This document shows positions 8,469 to 26,795 of a DNA stretch of 42,470 nt, piece after piece. How positions within the stretch are numbered: position 1 is the first letter of the stretch; each line of letters starts with the position of its first letter. The stretch lies in IMG/VR virus record IMGVR_UViG_3300037991_005648, positions 1 through 42,470 of that record, one strand, 5' to 3'. A model generated the notes under the pieces. It searched no databases and had not been told where the DNA came from. It saw only the letters and a program-made list of their open reading frames with translations. The translations under genes were made by a program, and so were the position numbers. Source of the stretch: a virus (lineage: Duplodnaviria > Caudoviricetes).

Positions 8469-9093
8469 TCCAGTATTAGATAAAGTATATGAGCTATTCA
8501 GAAAAGGTATGGGATATGTACATGAAAAACATATCTACAAGTTTAAAGATTATAGTGAGTGTGTTTTTGATACACAGATACAATCCAAGTGGTGGTTAGT
8601 TGGTCACTTACAAAATAAAGAAAAAAGAGGTGGGAGAGATATAAGAACATTTGATATATTAGCTAGTTGGTATGGTATTGTTATTGTACCCATGATAATG
8701 AATTACTTTGGCCAAGTTAAAATTAACCTATATGATGTTGATGAGTATACTTGTGATATTGCTAATCATATATGGCATAATGAGTATAATGGAATGGTTC
8801 AAGTACATCATAAAGATGTAGTATTTGACGATCTTGATTTACAAGGCGATGCTGTCATTAACTGTTCATGTGAACATATGTTTGATATGTCTCATATTGT
8901 ACATCAATATCCAAAAAAGTTGTACATTTTGCAAAGCAATAATAACAAAAATATTAAATGGTTACATATTAACTGTGCAGAGGGTCAAGGTGATTTAGCT
9001 AGACAAGCAGATCTAAGAAATATACACTTTGGTGAAAGTAAAGAGATGTATGGACAAAAAAGAATTATGATCATTGGAGAACACACAAAATGA
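8461..9093 (+). CDS. Class I SAM-dependent methyltransferase-like protein
   Basis: Rossmann-like pattern: DILASWYG (degenerate motif I), YDVD, KDV, VINCSCEHM, LQSNN. Confidence 0.55.
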   Translation: MYDPVLDKVYELFRKGMGYVHEKHIYKFKDYSECVFDTQIQSKWWLVGHLQNKEKRGGRDIRTFDILASWYGIVIVPMIMNYFGQVKINLYDVDEYTCDIANHIWHNEYNGMVQVHHKDVVFDDLDLQGDAVINCSCEHMFDMSHIVHQYPKKLYILQSNNNKNIKWLHINCAEGQGDLARQADLRNIHFGESKEMYGQKRIMIIGEHTK

Positions 9094-9500
9094 TCAGTAG
9101 AAAATCTAAAAGTATATTAAGACTTGATAGTAAGGTATATGGGTTTGTTATGTTGCTATACAGTCAGCAGTTGTTCAATCAATTTTTTAACGCAGAAGAG
9201 AATGCAGAGTGGGAAAGAATTAGACCTATTGTAGGTGAACTACATGAAGCTCTAAGTGAAGAAAATAGATGGGATGGTTACACAAGAGCTATTGAATATA
9301 ATGGTTTAGATCCAATTACATTTACTGGTGTAAACGATTCTTATTATCTTATGTATTGTATATCTAATTACAGAGTACCAGGAATAGAGTTGGATTCTTG
9401 TGTAACGTCAGAACACGAGAAGATTTTGTACTATGTATTTCAAAACATAACGAAAAAATCTCACAAGTACTATAATAAGTTTGGATCACGGCTTATTTAA
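9090..9500 (+). CDS. Hypothetical protein
   Basis: ATGA overlap with the upstream gene; last gene of the plus-strand operon. Confidence 0.65.
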   Translation: MISRKSKSILRLDSKVYGFVMLLYSQQLFNQFFNAEENAEWERIRPIVGELHEALSEENRWDGYTRAIEYNGLDPITFTGVNDSYYLMYCISNYRVPGIELDSCVTSEHEKILYYVFQNITKKSHKYYNKFGSRLI

Positions 9501-10265
9501 CTACTTGATATAATCTTTATCATATGGTGCTAGTGGCCAAACTAAGTCTGTACCAGCTATCTCCTCTACTGCGTTTTTCCATATACCCTCATCGTATATA
9601 ACATATCCTAATGTTATTCTTGGAACATCAGCATATGCAGTGTGCCATACAATCTTTTCATGTTCTTCTTTACGTCCATAGTAACCAACTTTACAAGACC
9701 ACCCTTTAGCATCTGGAATTGTTACTACGTTTGCTTCATTACCACCAGTTAAGTTGGGCTTAGGTGATTCAGATCCTGTTGGATCAATATGTCTCCAGAA
9801 CCCTTCTCCTGTAGGATTATATGTAAACAATATATTGTAACTTGGTACATTCCAGTTAGTATGCCAAGATATATATCCTTTTGGAGGATACCACATCTTC
9901 AATGCACAAAATCTATACCCAAGATAAGCTCCAAGATTATCATCTAACCATTTAGACTTTTCCATCAACGGTGCGCCTACTTCTTGATCAGTATGACCAC
10001 TCTTCATCCAAGTACCAATTTGGTTTAGATCAAATCCATAACTGTCAGGAGGATAACCATCATGCTCCATATGATTAATAGTTTGTAAGCATTCCACAGA
10101 GCAAGCATATTCAGATCGTCCTTCTTTATAAAATTTTCCTCCTCGAGCTTTGTACTTTTTATCTGGACCAAAGTTTTCTTCTAAGTTTAAACTCCAAACA
10201 AACTCTTTCCATTCATCTAAGTACGTCAAAATTTCCGATTGTATTTGATATATCGGGGTCATCAA
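9501..10265 (-). CDS. Cupin/2OG-Fe(II) oxygenase-like protein (HxN...H)
   Basis: WYPPKGYISWHTN, then IVWHTAY and PRITLGY, consistent with a double-stranded beta-helix metal site. The likely start is the ATG at 10262. Confidence 0.55.
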   Translation of the reverse strand: MMTPIYQIQSEILTYLDEWKEFVWSLNLEENFGPDKKYKARGGKFYKEGRSEYACSVECLQTINHMEHDGYPPDSYGFDLNQIGTWMKSGHTDQEVGAPLMEKSKWLDDNLGAYLGYRFCALKMWYPPKGYISWHTNWNVPSYNILFTYNPTGEGFWRHIDPTGSESPKPNLTGGNEANVVTIPDAKGWSCKVGYYGRKEEHEKIVWHTAYADVPRITLGYVIYDEGIWKNAVEEIAGTDLVWPLAPYDKDYIK

Positions 10266-11091
10266 TTATCCCTTCGTCTTGAGGTTTTCCTGGTATTGTG
10301 TAATGGTGAATAACTTTCTGATGTTTTTCACTTAGTTCCCATTCGCGGTATCCGTTAACAAAATTCCACTTAGGGTGAATCTCTTTAATCTTTACTTCAT
10401 AATTTGTATAGAAGTTTGTTCTCCAAAATGCGTAAGTGTCCCAGAACCACAATGAACTTGGATGTTCAAATTTATCTCTCCAGTTCTTCTTACTAGTAAT
10501 TTGTTCTTTATAATTTTGATACCATGCATGTAACATCTTTAATGTATGGGGCTTATTATTATATATAAACATTCCACAATGCCATAACATTCTGTAAACA
10601 CCGTTCTTAGCATTCTCTTCCCATGAGTGCACAGCATACAATGGTTTACCATCTGGCTCACCATTTTCCCAGATCATCTTCTTGTGTTCTTCTTCAAAGT
10701 GGGTTAGTTCTTTTTCTTTAGTAAAGTACACAACCTTAGCGTTATAAGGTCTATTTGTTGTCATTACCATATCATGAGAATCAGGAAGTTCATCAAAGAT
10801 ATATTTTATATCTTCATGCTCACAATATGTATCTGCATCCATATAACAGGTTTTATCATAGTGTGTTTGATCAAGAGCCCATAGCTTTGCTCTACAGTGA
10901 GCAGGTACTCCTGTTACAATCCTATCAAAGATTTGATTATCACGTGTCTCATTAACCCAATCTTTATGAGTAAACAAAGTACATTTAGCTTCTGGCCAAT
11001 AGTCTTTGATTGATTCAGCCGACATAACAGCTGCGTCATAATAAGGTTTTGTTAATGATCCTACGTATAAGAAACCATTATTTTGTGTCAT
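10213..11091 (-). CDS. GT-A fold (GT8-like) glycosyltransferase
   Basis: SAESIKDY, RAKLWAL, DxD (YMDADTY), HCGMF, WDTYAFW, KWNF and HHYT motifs. Probable start MTQNNG at 11091; the ORF track start is 11115. Confidence 0.8.
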   Translation of the reverse strand: MTQNNGFLYVGSLTKPYYDAAVMSAESIKDYWPEAKCTLFTHKDWVNETRDNQIFDRIVTGVPAHCRAKLWALDQTHYDKTCYMDADTYCEHEDIKYIFDELPDSHDMVMTTNRPYNAKVVYFTKEKELTHFEEEHKKMIWENGEPDGKPLYAVHSWEENAKNGVYRMLWHCGMFIYNNKPHTLKMLHAWYQNYKEQITSKKNWRDKFEHPSSLWFWDTYAFWRTNFYTNYEVKIKEIHPKWNFVNGYREWELSEKHQKVIHHYTIPGKPQDEGIIDDPDISNTIGNFDVLR

Positions 11092-11848
11092 CTTTTTGAG
11101 TATACTCCAGAGCAATCAACGCACCAACTGTAGCAATAACCTCCATTGTAGATTTTGCTTTACGAATACGAGACTTTAGTTCTCTATTCGTTGAGTTGGT
11201 AACAACAGGAAGTTCAAATGCTTCAACCTTTGCACCAAACAATCCTTCTTGTTTCACTTTATTTTCTTGATCTTTCATTTCAGATTCTTCACGCTCACGG
11301 AGGCGATGAATCTTGTTGATTTCTCTTTGTGTATTTTTATTCAATTCACTTTCTGGAAATAGTTTCTTTAGATGGTGCCATGCTGCTTCATGCATTGGTG
11401 CTGAGTCAATAGTATGGTTCTCAACACGATCATCTGGCATTCTCAAAAAGAAAGTAAGAACTGATCTTGCATCATTAGTGAAAAATGCATAGATTGGTTC
11501 ACCGTCTCCAAAAGGCCAATCTGGCTCTTTGACTTTTTTTTCAGCCACTCTTGTCTCCTCACGTCTGTCTTCATCTACTGGATCACGAGTCCAAGAATTA
11601 TTATGGATGTCAGCCTTTCGTACTAATCCAAGACGATCACTTCGATCCTTACTAAGGCTTTCTTTGTATACTTCCTTTTCCACACTCTCCTTATCATGAG
11701 GAGCATCGTGGTCAATTTCTTCTTCGAACTCTGGGATGTTCTTGTCTAGTTCTTTATTGACTAGCTCAGCTTCTGAACTGGCAACATTGTCACCAACATC
11801 AACCCTGAACCCATGTTGGGCAGGATCTATTTCTTGCACTTGTTCCAT
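11078..11848 (-). CDS. Hypothetical acidic protein with a helical C-terminal domain; possible fibre chaperone or adaptor
   Basis: AGGAG RBS; directly follows the 1356-aa repeat gene. The function is inferred from position only. Confidence 0.6.
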   Translation of the reverse strand: MEQVQEIDPAQHGFRVDVGDNVASSEAELVNKELDKNIPEFEEEIDHDAPHDKESVEKEVYKESLSKDRSDRLGLVRKADIHNNSWTRDPVDEDRREETRVAEKKVKEPDWPFGDGEPIYAFFTNDARSVLTFFLRMPDDRVENHTIDSAPMHEAAWHHLKKLFPESELNKNTQREINKIHRLREREESEMKDQENKVKQEGLFGAKVEAFELPVVTNSTNRELKSRIRKAKSTMEVIATVGALIALEYTQKDDTK

Positions 11849-11856
11849 TATAACTC

Positions 11857-14800
11857 CTAAGCAATTCTAACCCATAATTTAAGTGTAGTGACAGTACCAA
11901 CATAATTAACTGGTGTATCACTGTATGTATTTATATAGTCTTTATCATAGTTGGTTTCATACGTCTTTGAGAAAACCTTATCATAGTTAGACTCAAAATA
12001 ACCAGTAAATGTACCTTCATATGATTTCTTGTATGCTTTAGTAAAATCAACAAAGCCTTCATACGACTTTTCATAGTTAGTCTCGTAGAGCTTTGCAAAG
12101 TCTTGTTGCCATGCTTTTTCAAAAAGTCCCTCTCCAACATAACTAGGTCCTGACCAATCTTGTATATATTCAGCCGTATAAGTTTTTGTAAATGCTTTAT
12201 CATAATTTGCATCTGCTACATAATCTTTATCATATGATTTACTATAGTCTCTTTCATAATCTTTATCATAGTTCTTCGTATATGAAACATCAGTTAGATA
12301 ATTTTTCTCATAAGCCTTACTATAGTTCTTTTCATAATCTTTATCAAATGTACCTGTATACTCATGTACACTTGACCATGTTTTTGTCCACGTCTTAGTA
12401 TAAACCTTCTCATATTCTTTTGCATAGTCTCCTAAGAAGGTAAGAACCTTTATAAAGGCATTATCATAATTTTTACTATACACCTTTTCCCAGCTCTTAG
12501 TAAACAGTTTATTGTAGTTTACAAAGCCAGAAAATGTACCAATATAATCTGCACTAAAATCTTTTAGATAGTTTTTCATATACAATTTAGTATAGTTAGC
12601 AAACCCAGAAAATTCTGTATGGTATGTTGCATCCCAGTCTTTTGCATATGCTGCTGTATAATCTTTGTTATATGATCTACTATAGTGTTTGATATAATCT
12701 TTATTATAGTTTGCTAGGTAAGCTCCTAAGTAATCTTTAGCATATGCCTTCTGATAGGCTTTAGTCCAGGTTTTGGTGTAGTCTTTTTCATAAGCTGCAA
12801 CGTAGTCTTTTTCATAGGTTTTGGTCCATACTTTTTCGTAGTTCTTTTCATAATTAGCTTCCCAGTTTCTATTATATACACCTAACCATGCTTTCGTATA
12901 TGTACCAACATAGTCTTTGTCATAACTTTTTACATAGTCTTTGTCATATGTTTTAACCCAATTCTTTTCATATGTACCAACATAATTTTTATCATAACCC
13001 TTTACGTAATTTTTTTCGTACGTTCCAACATAATCTTTATCATAAGCCTTTACCCAGTTTTTTTCATACGTTCCAACATAGTCTTTGACCCAGGACTTGA
13101 CATAATCTTTGTTATATATTCCAAGCCAGGCTTTTTCATAATCTTTATTGTATGATGCATCAAATGAGCCCTCGTACGCTTTAACATAATCAACATTATA
13201 TTCTTTTTGATATGCTTTTTCATATGACTTGTTCCAGTCTTTAACGTAAGTTGCATCGAAACCTCCTTCGTATGACTTAACATAATTCTTTTGCCAATTT
13301 GTTAGCCATGCTTTTACCCAATCCTTCTCATACGTTTTAACATAATCTTTTACATAGTCTGTAACATAATCTTTTATATAATCCTTAGCCCAATTCTTTT
13401 CATAGGTCTTTACATAATTCTTTTCATATGCTTTTTCATATGCTTTCTCATAATTTTTAATCCAATTCTTTTCATAATCTTTGTCATAGTTTTTTGTCCA
13501 TATCTTTGTATAGCTTGCCTCAAAACTACCTTCATATATTTTATCATAATTGGTTGTCTGACTACCAGAAGCAAACCCTCCATAGAATACAGGTCCTACC
13601 CATATTTTTGTGTATGCTCCAACCCATGCCTTATCATAAACTTTATCATAGTTTTTATCATATGTTTTTACGTAAGCAGCTACGTAATCTTTATTCCAAT
13701 CTTTGTTCCAAACCTTATCATATGCTTTAACATAATCTTTTTCATAGTTGGTTATGTATAATGTTTCATATGCCTTGAGCCAATTTTTTGTATATGTTTT
13801 TAAATAATTTTTTTCATATGCAGCAACATAATTTTTTTCATATGCTGCCTCATAATCTTTTACATAGTCTTTATTGTAAACACCAAGCCATACTTTGTCA
13901 TAATTTTTTGCATAATCCTTACCCCAAACTTTAACATAATCTTTAGCAAAGGTTTGTGCCCAAGCTCTATCATATACACCAAGCCATACCTTATCATACG
14001 TTTTTACATACGTTGCATCGAAAGAACCTTCATATGATTTTACGTAATTGGCTTCGTAATCTTTTGTCCAATTCTTATCATATGCTCCTACATAATCTTT
14101 TTCATATGTTTTAACCCAGTTCTTATCATAGGCTTTTACGTAATCTTTTTCATATGTTTTGATCCAATCTTTATCGTATGCTCCTACGTAATCTTTATCA
14201 TAACTTTTTACATAGTTCTTATCATATGTCTTAACCCAATTTTTGTCATAGTTTCCATCAAACGATCCTTCGTAATCTTTGGACCAATCTTGAGTCCATC
14301 CTCCAATATAGATTGTATCGTAATCTCTATCATATCCTTTAACCCAATTTTTTTGGTAAGTCTTTACATATATTGTGTCGTAGTTTTTTTCATAATCTTT
14401 AGTATAATCTGTTACCCAATTTTTGGTCCAAGATCCTTCATATGTTTTAACATACTCTTTTGCAAATTCACCTTCGTATGTTTTAGACCAATCCTTTAAA
14501 TAATCTTTACTCCAAGCCTTTGAAAATATAGCTTCATAGTTTACTGATCCCGAATAATCTTTTTCATATTCCTTACCATAATCTTTTGTCCATAATTTTG
14601 TAAATGTTTTGTTATATAAAACTTCACCAGAAAATGAACCAGTATAATCTGTTTCATAATTCTTAACAAAATTCTTTGCAAAAACAGCAACGTAGTTTAT
14701 AAATCCTTCATATGCACCAGTATATAAACGGTCATACATTTTTGTATAATCAGCAGAATATGATACATGAAAGTTTTCTGGTTTACTATATACACCTTCA

Positions 14801-15927
14801 TATGTTTTAGTGTATACTTTAGTATATGTTTTAGTCCATTCCTTAGTATATGTTTCCTCACCAACATAATCTTTTTCCCAACTACCAGCATATGCTTTTG
14901 TATATGTTTTATCATAAGTCTTGGTATATGTAGCATCACCAACGTATGTTTTAGTGTATGTCTTTATCCAATCTTTTTCATACTCACCTGCAAAGTCACT
15001 TTGGTAAGATGGTGCACCTCCATATACACCAATGTAATCTTTCGTGTATATTCTTTCCCAACTTTTTTGATAAATCTTTAAATAGTTTGCAGCACTTGTA
15101 TAAGTCTTGGAATAATCTTTTTCATAACTACCTACATATTGACCAACAAATGTACCAACAAATGTTTTTGTATAATCTTTATGCCACTCTTTTGTAAATG
15201 TCTTTACATAGTTTTTTGAATATGATGAGCTTGCTGAGTCAATAATTTTTGTATCTAATATTGTACCTTGATTTACCCACGTGCCTGTAGCTGGAGCATT
15301 AGCTTGAATAACGTACTTACCAATTCCTGTATCAATTATTCTATTTCTAAGTCTTGCTGCAAGGGTTTGTATTTCTGTGTTTGACATCTGCTTTAATGTT
15401 GTACCAGATATTCTTAAAGGTAACACTTGAGCAGGAGCAGTTGCTACTGAAGTCTTTCTATACAAATTGTATGATGTTGATGTACTATTAGTTGTATCCA
15501 CCAATGCTGGTGTTATAGCCTCATACCTGTCTGAATCAGGATTTGTTGTTGACAGGACATAAGACCCAATTCCGTTAGACACAAGATTAGAAAGAGCAGT
15601 ACTAATGATGTACGTGTTAAGATTTGCATCTGAAGTCTCTTGTATTGTGGTGCCAAGTTCCACTGGCCGAACCATACTACTTTCAGAAACAGAAGTTAAA
15701 TTTTGATATACTGTTGTAGTGGAGGATGTCGCTGTATTTGTATCTGTGAAAGATCCAATACTTTCACCTGTATCTGTTCCAACTGACAATGTTCCAGTAC
15801 CTGAAGTACTAGAAGCAAATTCAGTCAATACTCTATGAACTATGTGGGTTAGTTCTGTATCTGGAGTTTCTTGCAAAGCTATCCAAGTTCCACCTCCAGT
15901 AGTCTTTATCTTGAGCGGCCGTCCCAT
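11857..15927 (-). CDS. 1356-aa aromatic-x-Lys-x tetrapeptide repeat protein with mirror-symmetric arms; putative giant beta-hairpin fibre
   Basis: About 235-aa non-repetitive N-terminal domain, about 1100 aa of [YWF]-x-[KG]-x repeats and a short C-terminal strand. Located in the late structural cluster. Confidence 0.85.
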   Translation of the reverse strand: MGRPLKIKTTGGGTWIALQETPDTELTHIVHRVLTEFASSTSGTGTLSVGTDTGESIGSFTDTNTATSSTTTVYQNLTSVSESSMVRPVELGTTIQETSDANLNTYIISTALSNLVSNGIGSYVLSTTNPDSDRYEAITPALVDTTNSTSTSYNLYRKTSVATAPAQVLPLRISGTTLKQMSNTEIQTLAARLRNRIIDTGIGKYVIQANAPATGTWVNQGTILDTKIIDSASSSYSKNYVKTFTKEWHKDYTKTFVGTFVGQYVGSYEKDYSKTYTSAANYLKIYQKSWERIYTKDYIGVYGGAPSYQSDFAGEYEKDWIKTYTKTYVGDATYTKTYDKTYTKAYAGSWEKDYVGEETYTKEWTKTYTKVYTKTYEGVYSKPENFHVSYSADYTKMYDRLYTGAYEGFINYVAVFAKNFVKNYETDYTGSFSGEVLYNKTFTKLWTKDYGKEYEKDYSGSVNYEAIFSKAWSKDYLKDWSKTYEGEFAKEYVKTYEGSWTKNWVTDYTKDYEKNYDTIYVKTYQKNWVKGYDRDYDTIYIGGWTQDWSKDYEGSFDGNYDKNWVKTYDKNYVKSYDKDYVGAYDKDWIKTYEKDYVKAYDKNWVKTYEKDYVGAYDKNWTKDYEANYVKSYEGSFDATYVKTYDKVWLGVYDRAWAQTFAKDYVKVWGKDYAKNYDKVWLGVYNKDYVKDYEAAYEKNYVAAYEKNYLKTYTKNWLKAYETLYITNYEKDYVKAYDKVWNKDWNKDYVAAYVKTYDKNYDKVYDKAWVGAYTKIWVGPVFYGGFASGSQTTNYDKIYEGSFEASYTKIWTKNYDKDYEKNWIKNYEKAYEKAYEKNYVKTYEKNWAKDYIKDYVTDYVKDYVKTYEKDWVKAWLTNWQKNYVKSYEGGFDATYVKDWNKSYEKAYQKEYNVDYVKAYEGSFDASYNKDYEKAWLGIYNKDYVKSWVKDYVGTYEKNWVKAYDKDYVGTYEKNYVKGYDKNYVGTYEKNWVKTYDKDYVKSYDKDYVGTYTKAWLGVYNRNWEANYEKNYEKVWTKTYEKDYVAAYEKDYTKTWTKAYQKAYAKDYLGAYLANYNKDYIKHYSRSYNKDYTAAYAKDWDATYHTEFSGFANYTKLYMKNYLKDFSADYIGTFSGFVNYNKLFTKSWEKVYSKNYDNAFIKVLTFLGDYAKEYEKVYTKTWTKTWSSVHEYTGTFDKDYEKNYSKAYEKNYLTDVSYTKNYDKDYERDYSKSYDKDYVADANYDKAFTKTYTAEYIQDWSGPSYVGEGLFEKAWQQDFAKLYETNYEKSYEGFVDFTKAYKKSYEGTFTGYFESNYDKVFSKTYETNYDKDYINTYSDTPVNYVGTVTTLKLWVRIA
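11926..15222 (-). repeat. 12-nt-period (tetrapeptide) coding repeat, degenerate at the DNA level
   Basis: aa 236-1334, e.g. YEKD YVKT YDKN WVKA; includes 26-aa super-repeats (5 tetrads + 1 hexad) in both outer arms. Confidence 0.95.
11928..11935 (-). promoter_or_regulatory. Candidate late promoter TATAAATA for the 11848-9501 genes
   Basis: Exact consensus about 80 nt upstream of the 11848 start. It lies inside a CDS in AT-rich DNA, so it may be chance. Confidence 0.35.
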
Positions 15928-15936
15928 TTCAGAGGC

Positions 15937-18900
15937 CTAACTCTGGAACATATAATTAGAGTCACCGATGATGTTCCCTTGATATATCATTGTAACAAAA
16001 TCTGAATTGTATCCTTTAATTGCTGCACCAGGTAGTCCACCATCACCACTTCTTGCATATCTTGACTTTCTTAAAAATCTTTCACCACCACCTGTTCCAA
16101 CATTACCAAGATTACCACCAGCTCCTCCTATAGCTCTAGAGTTACCAAATGCCCAATCTGGAATTCCATGAATACCTCCATCAAGAATATTACCATTTTC
16201 TGGCTTCCTTAGTAAATGAGCCTCTGGTGATCCTGTTGTACCAGCTGTACCAAAATTCCAACCAGCACCACCTGATCCTGCAACACCAGATGTTTCTGCT
16301 GTACCAATATAACTAACTTCAACTTCTCTTGAATATGATGTTGATTCGTATGTTTGTTGGTAATCTTTTGTATACTCTTTGCTGTATATACCAGTATAAA
16401 TCTTTGCATAAATCTTAGTATATGTACCTGTGTAAGTATTGCCATATTCTTTTACATAATCTCTTAGATATGTGGCTGTGTAATCTGCACCATAGTTTTG
16501 TGAGTTACTTCCATCAGAGAAGCCTCCATAGTATACACCACCAACCCATATCTTAGACCATACTTTATCATAAGTCTTAGTATATGCCTTTTCCCAATTT
16601 CTATCAAAAGTACCTGTATATACTTTTACATATTCTTTGTTATAAGCTCCAGTATAATCCTTTACGTAATCTTTTTGCCAGTTCTTTTGATATGTACCAA
16701 CAAACGATGCTATAGCAACATAAGTTCTAGCTGACCCAACAACTTCAAATTGTCTTGCATACGTGCCTTCATATGTCTTAGTGTAGTCTTTAGTATAAGC
16801 CTTTACGTAATCTTTCTCATATGCTTTTTGCCATTCGTGTGTATAAATTCCTGTAAATCCAGCATTATAGTTTGTTACGTCTGTTGCATTTGAGTAACCA
16901 CCATAAAATACTGGACCTTCATATGAAGCACCATATTCACCTGCATAGGCAGCTTCATATTCTTTTACATATAGTTTTGTATATGTTTTTTCATAATCTT
17001 TAGAATATGTGTTATCAAATGTACCTGTAAAAGTTGCAGAGTATATTGTTCCTGCATCTATAAATGTTTTTATAAATGCACCATATACACCACCAGGTCC
17101 TTTGTACTCACCTTGATAGTTTTTCAACCATGTTCTTGTGTAAGTAGCTTCATATACTTTAACATAATCAGCTGGTTCACTTACCCAATTCTTCACATAA
17201 TCATCACTAAAAGATGCAACAAATTCAGCTTGATATGTTCCACGATATCCTTTAACATAGTCTTTACTGTAGTCTTTATTGAATGTACCAGCAAACTGTC
17301 CAGAGTATTCTTTAATGTAATCTTTTGTATATGTTGTTTCGTAGTCCTTAGTATATGTTACACTACCAAAACTAGCTACATATTCTTTTGTGTATGTACC
17401 AGTGAACTCTTTACTATAATCACCAATATAATCTTTGTCATAATGTCTTGAGTAAGTCTTGGTATATGTTCCAACCCAATCTTTGCTGTAATCTTTTTCA
17501 TAGCTCTTTGTGAATACACCAGTATATACTTTTTCATAATCTTTTGTATATGATCCAAGCCATGCTTTAGTGTATGTACCTTCATACACTTTTTCGTAAT
17601 CTTTATCGTATGTTTTAGTATATGTTTTTGAGAAGTCTCTTTCCCAAGTCTTTGTATATTCAATATCATAGTTTTGTGTGTATGTAGCAACAGAAGAGTC
17701 ATATGCTTTTGAATATCCTCTACCATAGCTCTTTATGTAAGCAGCTTCAAATGCTCCGGTGTAATCTTTACTGTAGTCCTTCTCATATGACTTAGTATAC
17801 GCTTTTGTGTAAGCCCCTGTATAAGATCCATCAAACGATCCTTCATATGCTTTTTGCCAAGCCTTAGTAAAATCCTTACTGTATTCCTTATCATAGTTTT
17901 TAGTGTATATCTTAGTATATGTTGCACCATCATAGCTATCACCTTGATATGCTTCTGTTGCACTTTCATACGTTTTAGTATATACACCTTGATAGGTTAC
18001 CGTAAATGTACCTTCATATTCTTTTGAATATTCTTTGTTAAATACACCAGCCCATTCATTTACGTAATCTTTGGACCAAGTTTTATTATATTCTTTTTGA
18101 TATTCTTTCTCAAATGAACCAGTGTAGTTTGTACCAGTGTAGTTTTGAATATAATCTTTTGCATATTCTTTATTATACAAAGCACCTTCAAATGTAGAAC
18201 CGTAAGAAGATTCCCAAACCTTAGTATACGTACTTTGATAATCTTTAGTATAAGTCTTAGACCATAGTTTTGTGTAAGCAGCTGTGTATGCTTTTTGATA
18301 ATTTTCAACTTTGATTATAAATCCTTCACCAGCAAAACCTCCATATGCTTTATTGTAAGGAGCTGAAGAATATATCTTTGTATACTCAGGAATACCTTGT
18401 AAGAAAGATCCAGTCCATGTTTTCTTAAACACTGTTGGGATCCATGCATTACCAACACCACCCATGTAGTCTTTAGAATATGTTGTTTCCCAATTCTTGT
18501 CCCAAGCCTTAGTGTAAGCTGTTTCGTAATCTCTTGCCCAATTCTTTTCATAGTTAGCAGCAGAGCTATCCCAAGCCTTAGCGTATATCTTGGCATAATC
18601 TTTTGAGTATGCCTTTGTATAATCTGTAGAATATTCATTACCATATGCTTTTGTATAATCTTTAGCATAAGCATCAGCACCAGCAAAGGATTCAAACAAT
18701 CCTGGTGATACAAAGCTAACAGACTTGGTGTAAGCTACTTGGCCAGTAAATGTTTTATCATACGTGACATTATAGTCAGCTGCATATTCAACACCACCAT
18801 CACCATATGCTCTAGCTGATGTGAATGAACCAGTTGCACCTACATATGTACCAGCATCTTCATCGATGTAATACAATGTACCTGTATATTCTTTTGTATA

Positions 18901-21900
18901 GTTTTTAACATATTCTCCAAGATAGTTAGCAACATATACTGTCTGATATGCTTTTTCATATGTCTTGTTGTAGTTACCTTGATAAAGTTTATTGTAATCT
19001 TTATCATAATTTTTTGTATATGCTGCATCAAATGAACCTTCATATGCTTTGGTATATGTTTTAGTATATGTCTTTTCCCAAACTTTAGTATATGTTTTAG
19101 AAAAGTCTTGCTCATATACTTTACTATATGTTTTTTCGTACACTCCAACATAAGCTCTTGTATATGTTTTAGTCCAGTTCTTTGTATAAACACCAGTGTA
19201 GTCTTGATCATAATTTTTGGTATACAACTTGGTGAAAGGTCCACCTACAAATTCTTTTTGCCAAACTTTTGTGTAAGATGCTTCATAATCTTTATCATAT
19301 GCTACTACATATGCTACAGCATATTCTCTAGCATAATCAGTATTATACAATGTTGTGTACAACCTTACATAATCTTTGTTGTAAGTCTTAGTCCACGTTT
19401 TTAAGTAATCAACACTGAAGTCACCAACGTAGTTACCAGTCCATGTCTTTTCATAATCTTTCTCCCACGACTTGGTATAAACTCCTGTGTAGTCAGCGCT
19501 GTATGTTTTTTCAAAGTTTGCATCAAAGCTACCTTCATAAGCCTTGACGTAATCTTTTGTAAATGTCCCTCTATATTCTTTAACATAGTCTTTTGAATAA
19601 CTTGCAACATAATCTTTGTTATAGTCTTTATTATACACACCAACCCATGCTTTATCATAATCTTTTTCATATGTTTTGGTATATGTCTTAGTATAGTCAC
19701 CAACATATTCTTTGTTGTATGCTTTAATCCAATCTTTTGTAAACTCTTTAGTAAACGAAGCTGAATAAGGTGCACCTGCTTCGAAAGTACCTTCGTATGT
19801 CTTTTGCCAGACTTTTGTATATGATTTTGTATAGTTTGCATCAAATGTGCCTTCGAAGGCTTGATCAAATACACCTTCCCATGCTTTCTCCCAAACTTTT
19901 GTATATAATGCTCCATAGTCTTTCTCGTAAGACTTGGTGTACGTTGTTGTTTGACTTCCATGAGCAAAGCCTCCGTAGAATACAGGTCCTACATAATCAA
20001 CATCGTAGTTCTTAACCCAGGTCTTTACATAATCAGCATCGTAAGAAGCAGTATATGTACCAGTGAAGCTACCAGTATAATCTCCGGTAAATGTTTTTGT
20101 ATAATCTTTTTCGTATGTTGCTGTATAGTCTTTAATAAAGTCTTTGGCATATGGTCCACCTGATGCTGCACCGTGATAAGTCTCACCAAGGAATGTTTTA
20201 GAGAATACACCAGCTGCTGCACTGTAAGGATCTGTAATGCCTGAAGCACCACCACCGCCACCACCGCCACCAATGATGCCATAGTTTTCAATAAACAATT
20301 CAACATTTGCACAGGTTTCAATAGCATCAGCACCATCACGACCATCATTACCAACGCCTCTTGATGAAACATTTGCATCACCACCATTACCACCTTTACC
20401 AACTACAAAACCAGTTGGGTAAGTTAATATTCTAACAAGGTGTTTGATTTGTTGTTGTGTATCACCGGAAACATTAGCTGTGACAGCATTCATTGTAAGG
20501 TTGATAGCTGGTTTGTTAGCTGTTGTTGATCCAAATACATAGTTAGTTGTATTGTCGTCTTTATCACCAATATAAATGTTTACTAATTGAGGCTCTGTAT
20601 CTGGTTGCTTACCTTTATTAAGTAGATAGTCTCGTAAGTTAAAATCATTTACAAAGTATGTTAACTTCCCAAGATGTTGATCTTGTCCTCTTTGTGATCC
20701 AGCATCACTATCATCAATAAGAGCTTGTCCTTGGTCAAGAACAATATCAGTTGGATCATAACCAACATAACCAATCTTCCATGTATCATCTTGTTTAACA
20801 TTAACGTACTTAACTCTTTTCCACTCACTAGCTTGGTGAACAAATAGGTTACGTACTGATTTCCAATCATTGTCTTGCATAACTGACAACTTAGGTTGTC
20901 CTGAAAGACTTGAATCAAGTTGGCCAGAAGATGGGCCAACATAACTTGTTGTTCCACTGTACGGTTGTATGGAAGATAGAGGACCAGAGTATCTTTGTAC
21001 AAAGTCTCCATCTCCTGTGTATGTTGGTGAAAAGCTACCTAAGTATGGTCCTTCATATGTTTTTGTATATGTGACAGGACCTGAATAATCAGTTGATCCT
21101 TGATATCCAGCATTGAATACTGTACCATCTGAGAAGTCACCCGTAAAGTTTTGTGAGTATGCTTTAGCATATGCTTTAACATAATCCTTTTCCCAGTTTT
21201 TAGACCAATCATGAGTATAGAGTTTATCATAGTTTTTGGTATATGTCTTTGTCCAAACCTTAGTCCAGTCAGTAGAATAATCAGCACCGTAGTCCTTAGT
21301 ATATGTACTGACATAGTTGTCAGTTTGACTACCTGAAGCAAAGCCTCCGTAGAATACAGGTCCTACATATGTTGTACCATCATATGCTTTTTCCCAGTTT
21401 TTAGAATATGTTGCAACATAAACTTTATCGTAATCTTTATTGTAGTCTTTTTCATAACTCTTGATATAATTTGCTTGGTATGTTGCTTCATATAATTTAA
21501 CATAGTTTTTATTGAAGTCACGTGAGAATGCACCTTCATAGGTTCCTGTATAAGTAGTACCCCAAGACTTTGTATAAATTGTTGGACCAACATAGTTCTT
21601 AACATATTGAGCTGTACCTGCAAAGTTTTGAGCACCTTCAAAGAATTTTAAGAACGTAGCAAAAATAGCTTCGTATGCTTTTACGTAATTGCCTTGATAT
21701 AATTTATCGTAAGCTGCTACGTAATCTTTTTCGTATGTCTTAACCCAATTTTTGGTATATGTTTTTGTATATGTCTTAACATAGTCTTTTGTGTAATCAC
21801 CAATATATGTTACATCAAAGTTTTTGATATACCTGGCTTCATAGGCCTTCTGCCAATTCTTTTCGTATACAGCAGTATATGTTTTGACCCAGTTCTTATC

Positions 21901-24900
21901 ATATGCTTTTTCATAACTCTTAACATAATTCTTTAACCAGTTCTTATCATATGTTTTGTCATATGCTTTTTCATATGTTGCTACATAATCTTTATCATAT
22001 GTTTTTGTATACAAAGTATCATAATTTTTTGTATACGTTTTTTCCCATCTCTTGGTATATGCTGCTACGTAATCTTTTTCATATGTTTGATCAAATGCAC
22101 CTTCAAAGGCTTGATCAAAACTGCCTTCATAGTCTTTAGTATATGTTGCGTCAAAAGAACCTTCATATGATTTAGTATATGTTATGTCATAGTTTTTAAC
22201 CCAGTTCTTAGAATAGGTTGCATCAAAAGAACCTTCGTAATCTTTAACCCAGTTCTTTGTCCAAGCTCCTACCCAAACATTTACATAATCCTTAACGTAA
22301 TCTTTTTCATAGTCCTTTACATATACTTTATCATATGCTTTTTCATATGTTGCATTGAAAGCACCTTCATAGGACTTCACCCAGTTCTTAGTATAAACTT
22401 TATCATAATCTTTTACGTAGTCTTTATTGTATACACCAACCCATTCCTTAGCATAATCCTTTACGTAATTCTTTTCGTAAGTAGCGTTGAATGTACCTTC
22501 ATAAATTTTATCGTAGTTTGTTGTTTGTGAACCAGATGCAAAACCACCATAGAAAACAGGGCCAACCCAAATTTTTGTATATGCACCTGTCCATACTTTA
22601 TCATAACCTTTTACATAATCTTTACTATAGGTAGCATCAAATCCACCCTCGTATGTTTTTACATAATTCTTTGCCCATATTTTTGTATAGTCAGTTACGT
22701 AATCTTTTTCATAAACGCCAACCCATTCTTTAGCATATGCTTTTACCCAATCTTTTGTATAATCCTTTGAGTAAGTTTTGACATATGCTTTTTGGAACGA
22801 CTGCCAATCATCTGTGTTAACTTGTTCATTAGCCGTTTCATTATCTGTAACATTGAAGTTAGCTGTATACTTACCATTGGCTTTGTCTATTCTAAGATCG
22901 TCAATGAAGCCACCGATAGATGCATCCAAGTCACGTCTGTTACCAATTACTAATCTATTTGCACCTGTTAAGTTAGCCGCAGTTGTGTATGTTGTAGCAT
23001 CAGCAGTACCATTGATGTATACTTTAATTGTATTGCTTATTCTTACAATTGCAACATGATTAAATGTACTAGATGACCAAGGGCTGTTATCATTAGCTGT
23101 AAGTCTTGCATTAGTACCTTCAAAGAATATTATCTCACTTGGACTTGATGCATTGTTACCTCTAATGGCCCACTTGACACTATTGTCAGATGAATCATAT
23201 GCTTCTAAGATTGTTGCGTTGTTTGTACCTGGAGCTCTCATCCAGAATTCAATTGTGAAGTCTTCATTAGCAAAGTTAAAGTCATCATCAGAGAAGTTAA
23301 TTGTAAAGCCATGTCCACCACTTGGGACTTCTAATGAAGCAGAACCAAATTTCTTTTGATCTGTACTCTTTGCTGCACTACCATGTACTGTAGTTATATG
23401 GTTACCTTGATCAGACAGATCAATTATCTCTGTATCACCATCTGTTGCATTTGGTACTTCAGCATTCAACATCAATACTGTTGTGCTAAAGTCTTCATAT
23501 GGATTGTGATAGACTTTTACATAATCTTTTTGATATACACCAACCCAAGACTTATCGTAGTCAGCAACATAATCTTTATTATATGTTTGGTTGTAATCTT
23601 TTTCATACACACCAAGCCATGACTTACCGTATGCTTTTTGATATACACCTACAAAGCTACCAGTATATTCTCCAACATAAGTTTTAACATATGCTTTTAC
23701 CCAAGCCTTTTCATAATCTGTATCGTAGTTCTTGATATAGTCTTTGTTCCATGTTTTACCATAATCTTTATCATAAGACTTAACCCAGTTCTTATCATAT
23801 GCTTTTACCCAATCTTTCGTGTAAGTAGCAACGTAGTCTTTTACGTAATCTTTTTCATAACTTTTTACATATGTTGCAACATAGTCTTTATTCCAAACTT
23901 GATCGTATGCAGCAACATAATCTTTGACCCAATCCTTGGCCCAAGACTCATCATAATTTTTTACCCAAAGTTTATCATATGTTTTTACATAATCTTTCTC
24001 ATACGACTTAACCCATTCTTTTGTATATACACCAACAAATGCTTTTGTATATGTCTTTTGATAAACCTTATCATAATCTTTTACATAGTCTTTCTCATAA
24101 CTTGCATCAAATGAACCTTCATATGCTTTTGTATATGTTTTTACCCAATCTTTCGTGTAAACATTAACGTAGTCTTTTTCGTATGTTTTACCATAATCTG
24201 TTGTTTGAGAACCAGAAGCAAAGCCTCCGTAGAATACTGGACCAACATAAATTTTGTCGTAAGATTTTACCCAGGCTTTTTCATAAACTTTGTCGTATGC
24301 TTTTTCGTAATCTTTATTGTATACACCAACCCAGGATTTATCGTAAGTCTTAACGTAGTTCTTACTCCATACCTTAGTATAATCTTTTACAAAGTTACCA
24401 TCAAAAGAACCTTCATATGCTTTGTCGTATGCTTTTTGATAATCTTTAACCCAATTTTTAGTGTAAGTATTAGCATATTCTTTATGGTATGACTTGAGAT
24501 ATGTTTGAGCATACTCACCTTGATACAACTTAACATAATTTTTTAGATAGTCTTTGTTATAGTCAGTAACATAATCTTTCTCATATGCTTTTACCCAATT
24601 CTTTTCATATGTTTTTGTGTAATCACCAACATATAGTTTTTCATAATCTTTTGCATAAGCAGCTGCTCTATAAGAATCACCTAAACCTTGATATGTTCCA
24701 AGATAAACTACACCACCTAAGAAATTAGTTAAAGCTGCATAGTCTCTAACACCTTCATAAGTTTTAGTATAAGCTGTTCCATCATAACTTATTTGACCTT
24801 CATAAGCTAGTTGTCCTTGCCAAACATGAGTATATGATTCTTCTGTTTGATATGTTTTTGTATAATCTTTGTGGAAGTTTTCATCTGCAGCATACGAAGC

Positions 24901-25830
24901 TCGGCCAACATAATCTTTGAGATAATTCTTTGCTCCTGTATAATCACCATCCCAAACTTTTGTATAGTTTACTTCTGTTGTCCAGAATCTTACAGCTTGA
25001 TATGTTTTTACGTAATCTACAAAGCCAGTGAAACCTTCACCAGCTGCATTGAGGTATGCAATAGCTCCCCCATACTCTTTATTGAATGGCACAAAGCTAG
25101 TTGCACCAATCCAAGGACCAGCATTGTAGCTTACTAAACCAGTATATGTTTTTGTATATTGTCCTACATATGTTCCAACACCAGTATATGCTTTTTCATA
25201 AGCCCGTTGCCATTCAGCTTGGTATATTGTTTCACCAACATATGTCTTCTGATAATCTTTGTTGTAATCAACTGTACCAGTGTATACTTTATCATATGCA
25301 ACAAATCCTACAAAGCCACTATATGTTGGAATATAATTTTGATAGTTGGTATATGTGGCTGTGTAAGCAGCTCCATCATATCCACCAACACCTTGGAAGT
25401 TTACTACTCTAGAATAGTTAACTTCTGCACTATAGTTTCCTGTATAGTTTGCAAATATATTAGCATCTGCCCAAATACTATCTGGTTGTTTAGTAGCAGA
25501 TGCATATTCTTTTTGATAACCTTGTTGGCCTGCAAAAAGAACATTTGCTTTGTCATAGTTTTTTGTATATGTTGTAACGTCAATAGAATTATAATTGACG
25601 AAGCCTTCATATGACTTTGTATACGTACCTGCAAAGTTAGATTGCCATGATAAGGTAGATGTACGAGACCTAGTATAAACACCTTGGAATCCATTATAGA
25701 ATCCATGGAACGCATTAGTATATATTATGAAAGGAGTACGAGTTCGTTGCCCTGTGTAGGACACTTCAAAAACTCTATCTCCTCCAGCATATTCCTTTGC
25801 GTAGAGTCTTGGTGCGTACGAAGTCGACAT
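15937..25830 (-). CDS. 3297-aa tetrapeptide-repeat fibre/adhesin with an inserted LamG (ConA-like) domain and a split gp38-like glycine-rich domain
   Basis: [YWF]-x-K-x repeats; LamG motifs (KFGSASL, DFTIEFW, HVAIVR, YINGT, GFIDDLRI) at about aa 775-1008; GKGGNGG / NYGIIGGGGGGGG at about aa 1810-1865; GGAGG...GAAIKG...QGNIIG at the C-terminus. Confidence 0.85.
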   Translation of the reverse strand: MSTSYAPRLYAKEYAGGDRVFEVSYTGQRTRTPFIIYTNAFHGFYNGFQGVYTRSRTSTLSWQSNFAGTYTKSYEGFVNYNSIDVTTYTKNYDKANVLFAGQQGYQKEYASATKQPDSIWADANIFANYTGNYSAEVNYSRVVNFQGVGGYDGAAYTATYTNYQNYIPTYSGFVGFVAYDKVYTGTVDYNKDYQKTYVGETIYQAEWQRAYEKAYTGVGTYVGQYTKTYTGLVSYNAGPWIGATSFVPFNKEYGGAIAYLNAAGEGFTGFVDYVKTYQAVRFWTTEVNYTKVWDGDYTGAKNYLKDYVGRASYAADENFHKDYTKTYQTEESYTHVWQGQLAYEGQISYDGTAYTKTYEGVRDYAALTNFLGGVVYLGTYQGLGDSYRAAAYAKDYEKLYVGDYTKTYEKNWVKAYEKDYVTDYNKDYLKNYVKLYQGEYAQTYLKSYHKEYANTYTKNWVKDYQKAYDKAYEGSFDGNFVKDYTKVWSKNYVKTYDKSWVGVYNKDYEKAYDKVYEKAWVKSYDKIYVGPVFYGGFASGSQTTDYGKTYEKDYVNVYTKDWVKTYTKAYEGSFDASYEKDYVKDYDKVYQKTYTKAFVGVYTKEWVKSYEKDYVKTYDKLWVKNYDESWAKDWVKDYVAAYDQVWNKDYVATYVKSYEKDYVKDYVATYTKDWVKAYDKNWVKSYDKDYGKTWNKDYIKNYDTDYEKAWVKAYVKTYVGEYTGSFVGVYQKAYGKSWLGVYEKDYNQTYNKDYVADYDKSWVGVYQKDYVKVYHNPYEDFSTTVLMLNAEVPNATDGDTEIIDLSDQGNHITTVHGSAAKSTDQKKFGSASLEVPSGGHGFTINFSDDDFNFANEDFTIEFWMRAPGTNNATILEAYDSSDNSVKWAIRGNNASSPSEIIFFEGTNARLTANDNSPWSSSTFNHVAIVRISNTIKVYINGTADATTYTTAANLTGANRLVIGNRRDLDASIGGFIDDLRIDKANGKYTANFNVTDNETANEQVNTDDWQSFQKAYVKTYSKDYTKDWVKAYAKEWVGVYEKDYVTDYTKIWAKNYVKTYEGGFDATYSKDYVKGYDKVWTGAYTKIWVGPVFYGGFASGSQTTNYDKIYEGTFNATYEKNYVKDYAKEWVGVYNKDYVKDYDKVYTKNWVKSYEGAFNATYEKAYDKVYVKDYEKDYVKDYVNVWVGAWTKNWVKDYEGSFDATYSKNWVKNYDITYTKSYEGSFDATYTKDYEGSFDQAFEGAFDQTYEKDYVAAYTKRWEKTYTKNYDTLYTKTYDKDYVATYEKAYDKTYDKNWLKNYVKSYEKAYDKNWVKTYTAVYEKNWQKAYEARYIKNFDVTYIGDYTKDYVKTYTKTYTKNWVKTYEKDYVAAYDKLYQGNYVKAYEAIFATFLKFFEGAQNFAGTAQYVKNYVGPTIYTKSWGTTYTGTYEGAFSRDFNKNYVKLYEATYQANYIKSYEKDYNKDYDKVYVATYSKNWEKAYDGTTYVGPVFYGGFASGSQTDNYVSTYTKDYGADYSTDWTKVWTKTYTKNYDKLYTHDWSKNWEKDYVKAYAKAYSQNFTGDFSDGTVFNAGYQGSTDYSGPVTYTKTYEGPYLGSFSPTYTGDGDFVQRYSGPLSSIQPYSGTTSYVGPSSGQLDSSLSGQPKLSVMQDNDWKSVRNLFVHQASEWKRVKYVNVKQDDTWKIGYVGYDPTDIVLDQGQALIDDSDAGSQRGQDQHLGKLTYFVNDFNLRDYLLNKGKQPDTEPQLVNIYIGDKDDNTTNYVFGSTTANKPAINLTMNAVTANVSGDTQQQIKHLVRILTYPTGFVVGKGGNGGDANVSSRGVGNDGRDGADAIETCANVELFIENYGIIGGGGGGGGASGITDPYSAAAGVFSKTFLGETYHGAASGGPYAKDFIKDYTATYEKDYTKTFTGDYTGSFTGTYTASYDADYVKTWVKNYDVDYVGPVFYGGFAHGSQTTTYTKSYEKDYGALYTKVWEKAWEGVFDQAFEGTFDANYTKSYTKVWQKTYEGTFEAGAPYSASFTKEFTKDWIKAYNKEYVGDYTKTYTKTYEKDYDKAWVGVYNKDYNKDYVASYSKDYVKEYRGTFTKDYVKAYEGSFDANFEKTYSADYTGVYTKSWEKDYEKTWTGNYVGDFSVDYLKTWTKTYNKDYVRLYTTLYNTDYAREYAVAYVVAYDKDYEASYTKVWQKEFVGGPFTKLYTKNYDQDYTGVYTKNWTKTYTRAYVGVYEKTYSKVYEQDFSKTYTKVWEKTYTKTYTKAYEGSFDAAYTKNYDKDYNKLYQGNYNKTYEKAYQTVYVANYLGEYVKNYTKEYTGTLYYIDEDAGTYVGATGSFTSARAYGDGGVEYAADYNVTYDKTFTGQVAYTKSVSFVSPGLFESFAGADAYAKDYTKAYGNEYSTDYTKAYSKDYAKIYAKAWDSSAANYEKNWARDYETAYTKAWDKNWETTYSKDYMGGVGNAWIPTVFKKTWTGSFLQGIPEYTKIYSSAPYNKAYGGFAGEGFIIKVENYQKAYTAAYTKLWSKTYTKDYQSTYTKVWESSYGSTFEGALYNKEYAKDYIQNYTGTNYTGSFEKEYQKEYNKTWSKDYVNEWAGVFNKEYSKEYEGTFTVTYQGVYTKTYESATEAYQGDSYDGATYTKIYTKNYDKEYSKDFTKAWQKAYEGSFDGSYTGAYTKAYTKSYEKDYSKDYTGAFEAAYIKSYGRGYSKAYDSSVATYTQNYDIEYTKTWERDFSKTYTKTYDKDYEKVYEGTYTKAWLGSYTKDYEKVYTGVFTKSYEKDYSKDWVGTYTKTYSRHYDKDYIGDYSKEFTGTYTKEYVASFGSVTYTKDYETTYTKDYIKEYSGQFAGTFNKDYSKDYVKGYRGTYQAEFVASFSDDYVKNWVSEPADYVKVYEATYTRTWLKNYQGEYKGPGGVYGAFIKTFIDAGTIYSATFTGTFDNTYSKDYEKTYTKLYVKEYEAAYAGEYGASYEGPVFYGGYSNATDVTNYNAGFTGIYTHEWQKAYEKDYVKAYTKDYTKTYEGTYARQFEVVGSARTYVAIASFVGTYQKNWQKDYVKDYTGAYNKEYVKVYTGTFDRNWEKAYTKTYDKVWSKIWVGGVYYGGFSDGSNSQNYGADYTATYLRDYVKEYGNTYTGTYTKIYAKIYTGIYSKEYTKDYQQTYESTSYSREVEVSYIGTAETSGVAGSGGAGWNFGTAGTTGSPEAHLLRKPENGNILDGGIHGIPDWAFGNSRAIGGAGGNLGNVGTGGGERFLRKSRYARSGDGGLPGAAIKGYNSDFVTMIYQGNIIGDSNYMFQS
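16320..25620 (-). repeat. Tetrapeptide coding repeat tracts with six copies of an 18-aa GPVFYGGF-type motif
   Basis: Motif copies at 24196-24249, 22516-22569, 21316-21369, 19942-19995, 16870-16923 and 16495-16548; a seventh lies at 13549-13602 in the neighbouring gene. Confidence 0.93.
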
Positions 25831-25842
25831 CTAAGACTCTTC

Positions 25843-26136
25843 CTAACTATACGTTTGGTACCAGATGTCCCCATTCGCTCCACCTGTTGGTGTGGAGGTA
25901 CTTACGTACACTACGTACTCGGAGTCATTGTTTGATGAGGCTTCAAAGTTCCTAGATGTTTTAGTAATCTCTGCAGAACTTATACTATTAACGAGACCTC
26001 TATCTGTTACATTTGCAGTTAATGCAAACGTTGTATTACCAAAGTTCCCCGTTGTGATTCCTGTATCTGGTAACGTTGCAACTTGAATATTTGCAGCAGC
26101 ATTAACAATCGTTACTCCAGCAACTTTTAATGGCAT
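25843..26136 (-). CDS. Small fibre-associated protein
   Basis: Contains GITTGNFG...VTDRGLV and STSTPTGGANGDIWY, both common phage fibre motifs; coupled to the upstream gene. Confidence 0.65.
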   Translation of the reverse strand: MPLKVAGVTIVNAAANIQVATLPDTGITTGNFGNTTFALTANVTDRGLVNSISSAEITKTSRNFEASSNNDSEYVVYVSTSTPTGGANGDIWYQTYS

Positions 26137-26795
26137 TACTTACTCTCCAGTTCTTCGACCCGGTTACTCAGCTCTTTAACTGCTTCGATTAACAAAGGAA
26201 TCAACGACTGATACTTAACTGCAAGATTACCATTTCCATTAGTAGACACAAGGAATGGTAGTTCAGCTTGAACTTCTTGAGCTATGACACCCAAATCTGT
26301 TTTTCCGTTTTTCTCATCATCAGTATCCCACTTGAACATATACCCATTTATGTTTTTTACAACCTCAAGAGCATTCTCCATTTGTTGTAAATCAATTTTC
26401 AATCTCTTATCTGAAGAATAATTTGCTTCAACATCACCGGCACTTATAATGTTTTTGAAATATCCATTACCCATCATCATGGTTGTATTACCAAGCTCAT
26501 GTGTAACATTTGCAGATGGGTGAACATTGGAACCAAGAGTTAATACTCCTGCAGTAGGAACAGTTCCTCCTCTAAGAATTTGAGTAACTGCTAATGTATT
26601 TGCAGAAAAGGTTCCATTAACATAACCATTGCCAGAAGTAATTGTATGGTTTGTTGAATTTGGAGTAGAAACATCACCAACAGTAACAACAATAGTACCT
26701 TGATCGTAGACCAATTGATTAGTTCTATTGATCCATTCTCTGAAAGTATCTGTTGAAGTCGATACGTTTGCTCCCAAATACGATGTCTTTGCCAT
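26136..26795 (-). CDS. Short tail-fibre protein with a C-terminal peptidase S74 intramolecular chaperone
   Basis: N-terminal TDTFREWINRTN anchor; YSSDKRLK, GVIAQEV and VKYQSLIPLLIEAVKEL coiled coil. Confidence 0.88.
   Translation of the reverse strand: MAKTSYLGANVSTSTDTFREWINRTNQLVYDQGTIVVTVGDVSTPNSTNHTITSGNGYVNGTFSANTLAVTQILRGGTVPTAGVLTLGSNVHPSANVTHELGNTTMMMGNGYFKNIISAGDVEANYSSDKRLKIDLQQMENALEVVKNINGYMFKWDTDDEKNGKTDLGVIAQEVQAELPFLVSTNGNGNLAVKYQSLIPLLIEAVKELSNRVEELESK

Follow-up and report, generated by a model that had tools for sequence, protein, structure and literature searches.

The window analysed here, a single 42-kb contig of 42,470 nucleotides, is the tail region of a T4-like phage, and encodes on its minus strand a 3297-aa protein (P; 15937..25830) that is probably the host-binding fibre of a marine T4-like phage, with a chain predicted to zip up as a branching tree, with some nine tips, built around a gp38-like core. 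At the level of sequence, we show mirror covariation between strands, the registers of the stems and their nesting, a junction at residues 444/448, 626/630 and 1334/1338, and a LamG domain placed laterally on one strand. The pairing and topology of the hairpin tree appear well supported, and its three-dimensional form is predicted. The fuller picture towards which we lean is of one chain that uses a base-pair-like code to build a tree of β-ribbons of about 100 nm with true three-way junctions, acting as a host-catching net derived from a gp38 loop.

The fibre locus and the repeats of P

Pfam and PHROG scans identified gp5, gp25, gp6, gp7- and gp8-like baseplate genes in the window, the gp6 product being about 35-36% identical to those of Cr30, HTVC008M, phiM12, Mosig and Melnitz. 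Next in gene order come a structural protein of 2185 aa, a short tail-fibre protein of 219 aa that bears an S74 chaperone domain (26136..26795, minus strand; PF13884), a 97-aa ORF (25843-26136, minus strand) with no family match, P, and its paralogue Q (1356 aa; 11857..15927, minus strand). P is thus located after the baseplate genes and the S74 fibre gene. An adaptor role for the 97-aa product is possible. The gene of P is a genuine ORF; a second assembly, L017, agrees at 9032 of 9046 nt across the downstream genes and the C-terminal 869 aa of P. A search of the protein database returned no full-length relatives of P. In L002, at about position 6530, the P gene is frameshifted, probably through an assembly error (the contig has Ns).

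Two other groups of genes in the window were recorded. After the fibres, positions 4344-11848 encode a conserved 256-aa protein, glycosyltransferase-like genes, radical SAM and Asp/Arg-hydroxylase-like proteins and other ORFs, in an order that is similar in the relatives' loci compared; this cluster may modify or chaperone the Lys/Thr/Tyr-rich fibres. At 432-2087 (minus strand), adjoining the head-tail adaptor gene, lies the gene of a 551-aa protein with lysine-rich modules, a DUF6321 match and nine PHROG matches without known function.

P is built from the four-residue unit [YWF]-x-[K/G/A]-x: 513 of 684 aromatic-to-aromatic gaps are exactly 4, Gly occupies the third position in 78 of 452 tetrads, and Thr and Val are abundant. 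A sequence-only reading had located an 18-residue motif at aa 528, 1088, 1488, 1946, 2970 and 3095, and all six starts were recovered. Counted as aromatic anchors, the runs flanking copies 1 to 6 are 35/59, 20/72, 17/16, 14/14, 11/11 and 14/13, one or two more than counted before, the tip-adjacent anchor being included here. The near-equality reported for the arms of copies 3-6 holds in these counts, and is not that of randomly placed motifs: the chance of at least four of six motifs falling within one tetrad of the middle of the joined run is 2.4e-5.

Mirror covariation and the pairing rule in Q

Q was used both as an internal control and as a training set for a pairing score. It contains one motif copy (13549-13602) with 79 tetrads on either side, followed outwards by mirrored blocks of six tetrads, the arrangement of an unbranched fold-back. 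Its run order is a near-perfect palindrome (11, eight blocks of 6, 79, motif, 79, blocks of 6, 11), which is inserted after a base domain of 230 aa and before a C-terminal strand, and would measure about 180 nm if extended. The two arms of Q co-vary in mirror order only at the motif-centred register (z 17.5); other registers were rejected, with the next antiparallel shift at z 2.8 and the best parallel one at z 5.9. The same leading offsets were recovered in 5 of 5 stems from five different proteins; double counting of same-phase pairs inflates the z values of those pairs, and the three Q stems are related to one another.

The rule that emerged joins unlike residues in reverse order (F with G, W with A or T, Y with K) and is not one of mirror identity. 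F:G was seen 20 times, a 6.6-fold enrichment, while W:A and W:T were enriched 3.5-fold and 3.0-fold, respectively; Y:K, G:G, N:D, V:E and D:T were also favoured. Conversely, F:K was seen once against 19 expected, and W next to W not at all against 45 expected. Each aromatic has a co-varying cover residue on the partner strand. A rule placing W opposite G was considered and replaced by F:G and W:A/T on covariation counts. The leading offsets differ in sign between the aromatic and the polar face, which we infer to be the pattern expected of a twisted two-stranded β-ribbon; such diagonal contacts are part of the geometry of a twisted β-hairpin.

A log-odds score was trained on three Q-type stems only, i.e. 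Q and two relatives. When applied to held-out proteins, register 0 was positive and eight other shifts were negative in both of the two proteins scored. Separately, phage C48C1 (OQ984149; L001, 19722-29765) encodes a 3347-aa Q-like protein that carries an Arg/Gly version of the repeat, with mirror covariation (z 26) about a 70-aa tip and several variable domains on the return strand; some 74 aa are directly duplicated near aa 2009-2156.

Stems, junction and lateral domain of P

The four best stems of P by the Q-trained score were 634-778:1186-1330 (83), 1016-1084:1110-1178 (36), 400-436:1346-1382 (27) and 452-524:550-622 (21), against best scores of 8.9-13.6 in 28 tetrad-shuffle controls, and they match those predicted beforehand from run arithmetic in relatives. 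In a partner-register test, 11 of 17 segments ranked first, among them every motif hairpin as well as trunk and shaft. The other six were four guessed segments from the proximal YDSS arm, the WDSS hairpin and the inner portion of the YNTDY hairpin. All six motifs are located at a chain reversal, as had been proposed, register 0 being the best of 7 shifts and ranking first among 158-320 alternative partners. The likeness to an RNA stem-loop tree is borne out as well: the stems of P nest without crossing. The branch topology, which could not be read by eye, is now assigned for 458 of 499 tetrads in runs of at least 4, some stems being weak; like aa 1-391, the irregular linkers found no partner.

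All features described below are on the minus strand. From the N-terminus, aa 1-391 (24658..25830) form an irregular, aromatic-rich region whose length and sequence are conserved in 7 aligned proteins. No partner strands were detected for it either in the single protein or averaged over the 7, Pfam and PHROG returned no match, and ESM Atlas leads were at most 0.87. In L003 (10271-19519), aa 228-292 form a 6/6 hairpin where P has YNAGPW (aa 235-240), which suggests defined sprouting sites in the N-terminal region. The 5' strand of the trunk (aa 392-447; 24490..24657) then pairs with aa 1338-1390 (i+j=1782; best of 268, z 5.2). It is followed by the side-branch hairpin (aa 448-629; 23944..24489; 21 rungs, i+j=1074), with motif copy 1 at its tip (24196-24249), and by the 5' strand of the shaft (aa 630-781; 23488..23943), whose 38 rungs with aa 1186-1334 (i+j=1964) make up the highest-scoring stem (z 9.1). 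Residues 1012-1393 (21652..22797) provide the distal 5' strand of 20 rungs, motif copy 2 (22516-22569) and an unbroken return of 72 tetrads; this hairpin 2 (i+j=2194) was the best of 182 alternatives. The side branch was considered as a recent copy of hairpin 2 and the idea was set aside, identity being 0.39 against a background of 0.30.

Between the 5' strand of the shaft and the distal 5' strand lies a LamG/concanavalin-A-like domain (aa 782-1011; 22798..23487), matched by PF13385 with an E value of 1.6e-18 and 67.7 bits for a cut-off of 27.6. A PDB match, 4qvs_A, is weak (E 0.0066), and a weak Toxin_R_bind_N match, below cut-off, was rejected as reflecting the shared fold. The domain occupies the interval between 778 and 1012, while the partner strand runs from 1186 to 1182 unbroken. 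LamG is thus a lateral insert on one strand and not a tip.

The remaining arms are single hairpins or bulged arms. Hairpin 3 (aa 1419-1569; 21124..21576) carries motif copy 3 (21316-21369; best of 240) and hairpin 4 (aa 1894-2019; 19774..20151) motif copy 4 (19942-19995; best of 277). A register scan also revealed a hairpin of about 36 rungs at aa 2022-2318 (18877..19767), absent from the sequence-only reading, whose YNTDY tip (aa 2162-2166) lies inside an unbroken tetrad run. That reading had raised the possibility of a second, shorter turn type, and both proposed turns are present, WDSSAANY at aa 2420 and YDSSVATY at aa 2710. The latter stands, its distal hairpin being the best of 193 alternatives within a long bulged arm (aa 2511-2912; 17095..18300; tip 17680-17703) of which the proximal part has moderate support after re-registering on 7 proteins. 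The former is weak, 4 of 322 alternatives scoring as high as the WDSSAANY hairpin (aa 2388-2459; 18454..18669; tip 18550-18573; z 2.1). Finally, hairpin 5 (aa 2930-3031; 16738..17043; motif copy 5 at 16870-16923) was the best of 320, at a low absolute score of 0.5 (z 3.3), and hairpin 6 (aa 3043-3164; 16339..16704; motif copy 6 at 16495-16548) the best of 277, at an absolute score of 5.3 that is also low (z 3.2).

Trunk, side branch and shaft meet at a three-way junction that closes without spare repeats, the last pairs being 444:1338, 448:626 and 630:1334 of strands 392-444:1338-1390, 448-528:546-626 and 630-778:1186-1334, with hairpin 2 beyond. Side-branch pairing in P ends there, the outer 12 rungs scoring -20.7. 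Past the junction, all six proteins give negative scores for the side-branch register (-13 to -25), whereas in each of the five complete ones that strand scores positively with the far 3' strand (+11 to +26). Residues at the junction are conserved at 9 of 15 positions, compared with 36 of 213 elsewhere (three lineages), and include the words SYHK, NYDESW and YEA[RH]Y.

Twelve P-type proteins were scored, that of the window included. The same junction is found in five (the window, L007, L014, L015 and L037), and the incomplete L029 has a side hairpin with the same ends; these six represent about three lineages. It is absent from L003, L005, L006, L009 and L038, the stems of L038 being weak, and L010 shows a weak candidate fork on the opposite strand (score 18.6). 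Arm lengths appear to be encoded, as the sequence-only reading had it, strand lengths being compensated across relatives. Indeed, the register analysis across homologues that it had called for shows strand totals that stay balanced while lengths change: 80/80, 62/62, 65/65, 41/41 and 51+19=70. The shaft has 38 rungs in P and about 51 in L007 and L014, both strands being longer together. In proteins that have LamG and no side branch, the totals match exactly (95+22=117, 74+13=87 and, for a Q-type protein, 54+26=80). The register persists in relatives at 52-64% identity, and whole arms are gained or lost among relatives: L006 has hairpins of 4/4 and 5/6 where P has 14/14 and 36/37. Tips are also swapped, motif 3 being replaced by YVDGSGDTY in L014, and YNTDY by FNGGGTDY in L014 and FNTDW in L007. 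The motif family is not confined to tips, because a motif-like loop of L003 sits as a bulge in the place of LamG. Among further observations, relatives of Q are balanced at 80/80 and 62/62, one with a lateral LamG, and the P relative in L038 (9998-19729) has a main arm of 63 versus 15+47 tetrads and an elaborate tip with many GP/GN-x-YYGG-like loops.

A gp38-like core, the proposed fibre and known systems

Two separated parts of P make up a gp38-like domain. The first (aa 1645-1866; 20233..20898; PF05268, phrog_2056) holds three W-K repeats, a beta-helix-like part and the first glycine-rich motifs; the W-K repeats, at aa 1656-1685, are internal and lie outside the Pfam match. The second (aa 3176-3297; 15940..16305) holds the remaining glycine-rich motifs and aligns with the C-terminal part of uninterrupted relatives. 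PF05268 scores 36.3 bits on whole P and 42.1 bits on aa 1645-1895 (cut-off 25), covering profile positions 37-126 of 218, compared with 4-216 in P0004 and P0005. The domain is whole in P0004, P0005, P0006 and others, several of which carry a simple tetrad hairpin in front, and alignment with these intact relatives places glycine-rich motifs on either side of the insert. The simplest form of the system is seen in an 800-1200-aa family (P0005, P0012, P0013, P0015, P0019, P0023 and P0024), with one N-terminal tetrad hairpin, often plus a 26-tetrad basal stem, and then a gp38-like domain. Phmmer and profile searches of P against the PDB found no solved relative, S16 gp38 included. ESM Atlas gave nothing beyond unnamed clusters at 0.87-0.90, all with low recognition values.

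Alignment with the relatives in which this domain is intact shows about 1300 aa of arms inserted at sequence level in one gp38-like loop. The loop that splits the domain is 1334 aa long in P and ranges over 863-1608 aa across all seven P-type proteins in which it was measured, compared with about 30-40 aa in P0005 and P0006. Since P does not have the short hypervariable loop of gp38, it is not filed as a plain gp38 member; it would work like gp38 with a loop and the N-terminus grown into arms. In gp38 itself, receptor binding falls to short loops that separate the glycine-rich motifs, and the monomer attaches to the trimeric fibre through three Trp (PMC6851490, PMC12032242).

In the fibre that we propose, four-residue repeats would match in reverse order to give thin two-stranded arms, probably β-ribbons, with aromatics and Lys/Gly/Ala on one face and polar residues on the other. 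Direct pairs would lie at i+j=S, the F-over-G, W-over-A and Y-over-K diagonals at S+2 and polar diagonals at S-2, with pairing inside a single chain. The W-K repeats may dock one copy of P on the short S74-bearing protein encoded two genes upstream, which is likely a trimer and which, from gene order, the gp38-like domain would cap. Fully extended at 0.33 nm per residue, the arms would measure about 12-95 nm, with roughly 95, 28, 21, 18, 48, 12, 66, 15 and 18 nm predicted for the nine, and less if they coil. They would hold apart several tip loops of identical sequence (GPVFYGG) together with a single lectin-like LamG domain; the spread tips would widen the capture volume and could bind the host surface multivalently. 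Growth and shrinkage of arms would proceed via paired insertions on both strands, with whole units gained or lost.

It is unlikely, although conceivable, that the stems are right and the shape is different, the arms being packed or coiled into a compact or thick rod, with the 21-rung side hairpin lying against the shaft for instance, or forming no regular β-ribbon. An aromatic-rich face may need burial, and AlphaFold2 gave no confident β-ribbon for a motif hairpin (pLDDT 30); strands drawn at 29-45 and 93-109 would, if antiparallel, be at most 2 residues off the predicted register, and were given no weight. On aa 385-1395 (pLDDT 24), even LamG had no confident fold and some repeats were drawn as helices. 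Against packing, a co-varying cover residue already lies opposite each aromatic, and free variation of arm length and the loss of whole arms in close relatives fit independent arms.

We also consider it improbable that the pairing rule holds but that the long-range stems join different copies of P, as in a strand-swapped dimer or trimer, the junction being a chain exchange within a network or bundle. Most phage fibres are trimers, and covariation is blind to chain identity, within-chain and between-copy pairing being indistinguishable by it. However, pairing within one chain comes naturally to strands joined by tip loops of 4-18 residues, the nesting of all P stems without crossing argues the same way, and gp38 adhesins are monomers (PMC12032242).

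That the repeats are antiparallel α-helical hairpins is very doubtful. Lys, Glu and Ala are numerous and the low-confidence model drew some helices, but a coiled coil would not fit a period held strictly at 4.0 through as many as 72 repeats, the Gly-bearing third positions and the wealth of Thr and Val speak against helix, and the opposite-sign offsets on alternate faces fit a twisted strand pair. It is scarcely credible that P forms a single long stem without branches, capped by LamG, with motifs 1 and 2 looping out at the side. The symmetry about LamG noted earlier (382 and 378 aa) stands as near-equality, 94 and 92 tetrads flanking the domain, and the motif-like loop of L003 does sit in a bulge; the idea that LamG caps a stem fails, all three model stems being negative at all 7 shifts (-21 to -108), and L005, L006 and L019 are unbalanced about LamG and balanced about the motif. 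Finally, repeat genes are prone to slippage and the L002 gene is frameshifted, but it is barely tenable that the symmetry stems from duplicated DNA, inverted repeats or faulty assembly and means nothing for the protein: inverted DNA repeats reach 36 nt at most with none centred on motifs, simple mirror duplication is rejected by a mirror identity of 28% against a background of 28-33%, and the rule pairs unlike residues in a register kept at 52-64% identity.

If the single-chain tree is correct, the pairing rule predicts topology where AlphaFold2 fails, and P would be a natural protein origami, its topology readable by RNA-folding logic, with interchangeable tip loops and side-mounted domains. 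It would offer a genetically encoded scaffold whose arm lengths and cargo sites could be programmed and, to phages living in dilute seawater, a new means of extending their reach, the host-range loop of gp38 being expanded about forty-fold in P. No description of such a fibre was found in the open-access literature searched. Isolated two-stranded ribbons hundreds of residues long and forked in unbroken repeat phase were not found described there.

Parts of the design have counterparts. In the needle of T4 gp37, the chain runs out and back antiparallel in the tail fibre tip, as proposed for P; unlike P, the needle is short, trimeric and metal-bound, and is not known to have a four-residue code or branches. 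MORN repeats and the cation-π ladders of tryptophan zippers and thrombospondin have, as proposed for P, aromatic-over-Gly and aromatic-Lys cross-strand contacts, and the MORN word YxGxW/F resembles YEGSF of P. MORN proteins, however, form many short hairpins in a sheet from a 23-residue repeat, whereas the strands of P are 40-290 residues long; Pfam gave no MORN match in P at E 0.01, and the period is 4. Ackermannviridae and KP32-type phages have branched receptor-binding systems in which several tips arise from one anchor point. The same is predicted for P and is seen in phiKp24, where branching arises from up to 14 separate trimeric proteins via T4gp10-like domains (PMC9700779). In P, by contrast, branching is predicted from one chain by strand pairing: Pfam and PHROG scans found no T4gp10-like domain and the branching signal lies within one ORF. 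Phage 7-7-1 has bushy tail fibres and curly capsid fibres (PMC12796354).

The closest counterpart compared is gp38 of T2/S16-type phages (PDB 6F45; PMC6851490, PMC12032242). It shares with P the Pfam family, the glycine-rich motifs including a poly-Gly run, a gene placed after an S74-bearing fibre gene, and variation concentrated in a loop between glycine-rich motifs. In gp38, such motifs form a polyglycine sandwich at the C-terminus. The three Trp-bearing repeats ahead of the beta-helix-like part of P may correspond to the N-terminal three-helix attachment domain of gp38 with its three Trp. P differs from it in the 1640 aa in front, and in carrying about 1300 aa of predicted hairpin arms in place of a short turn.
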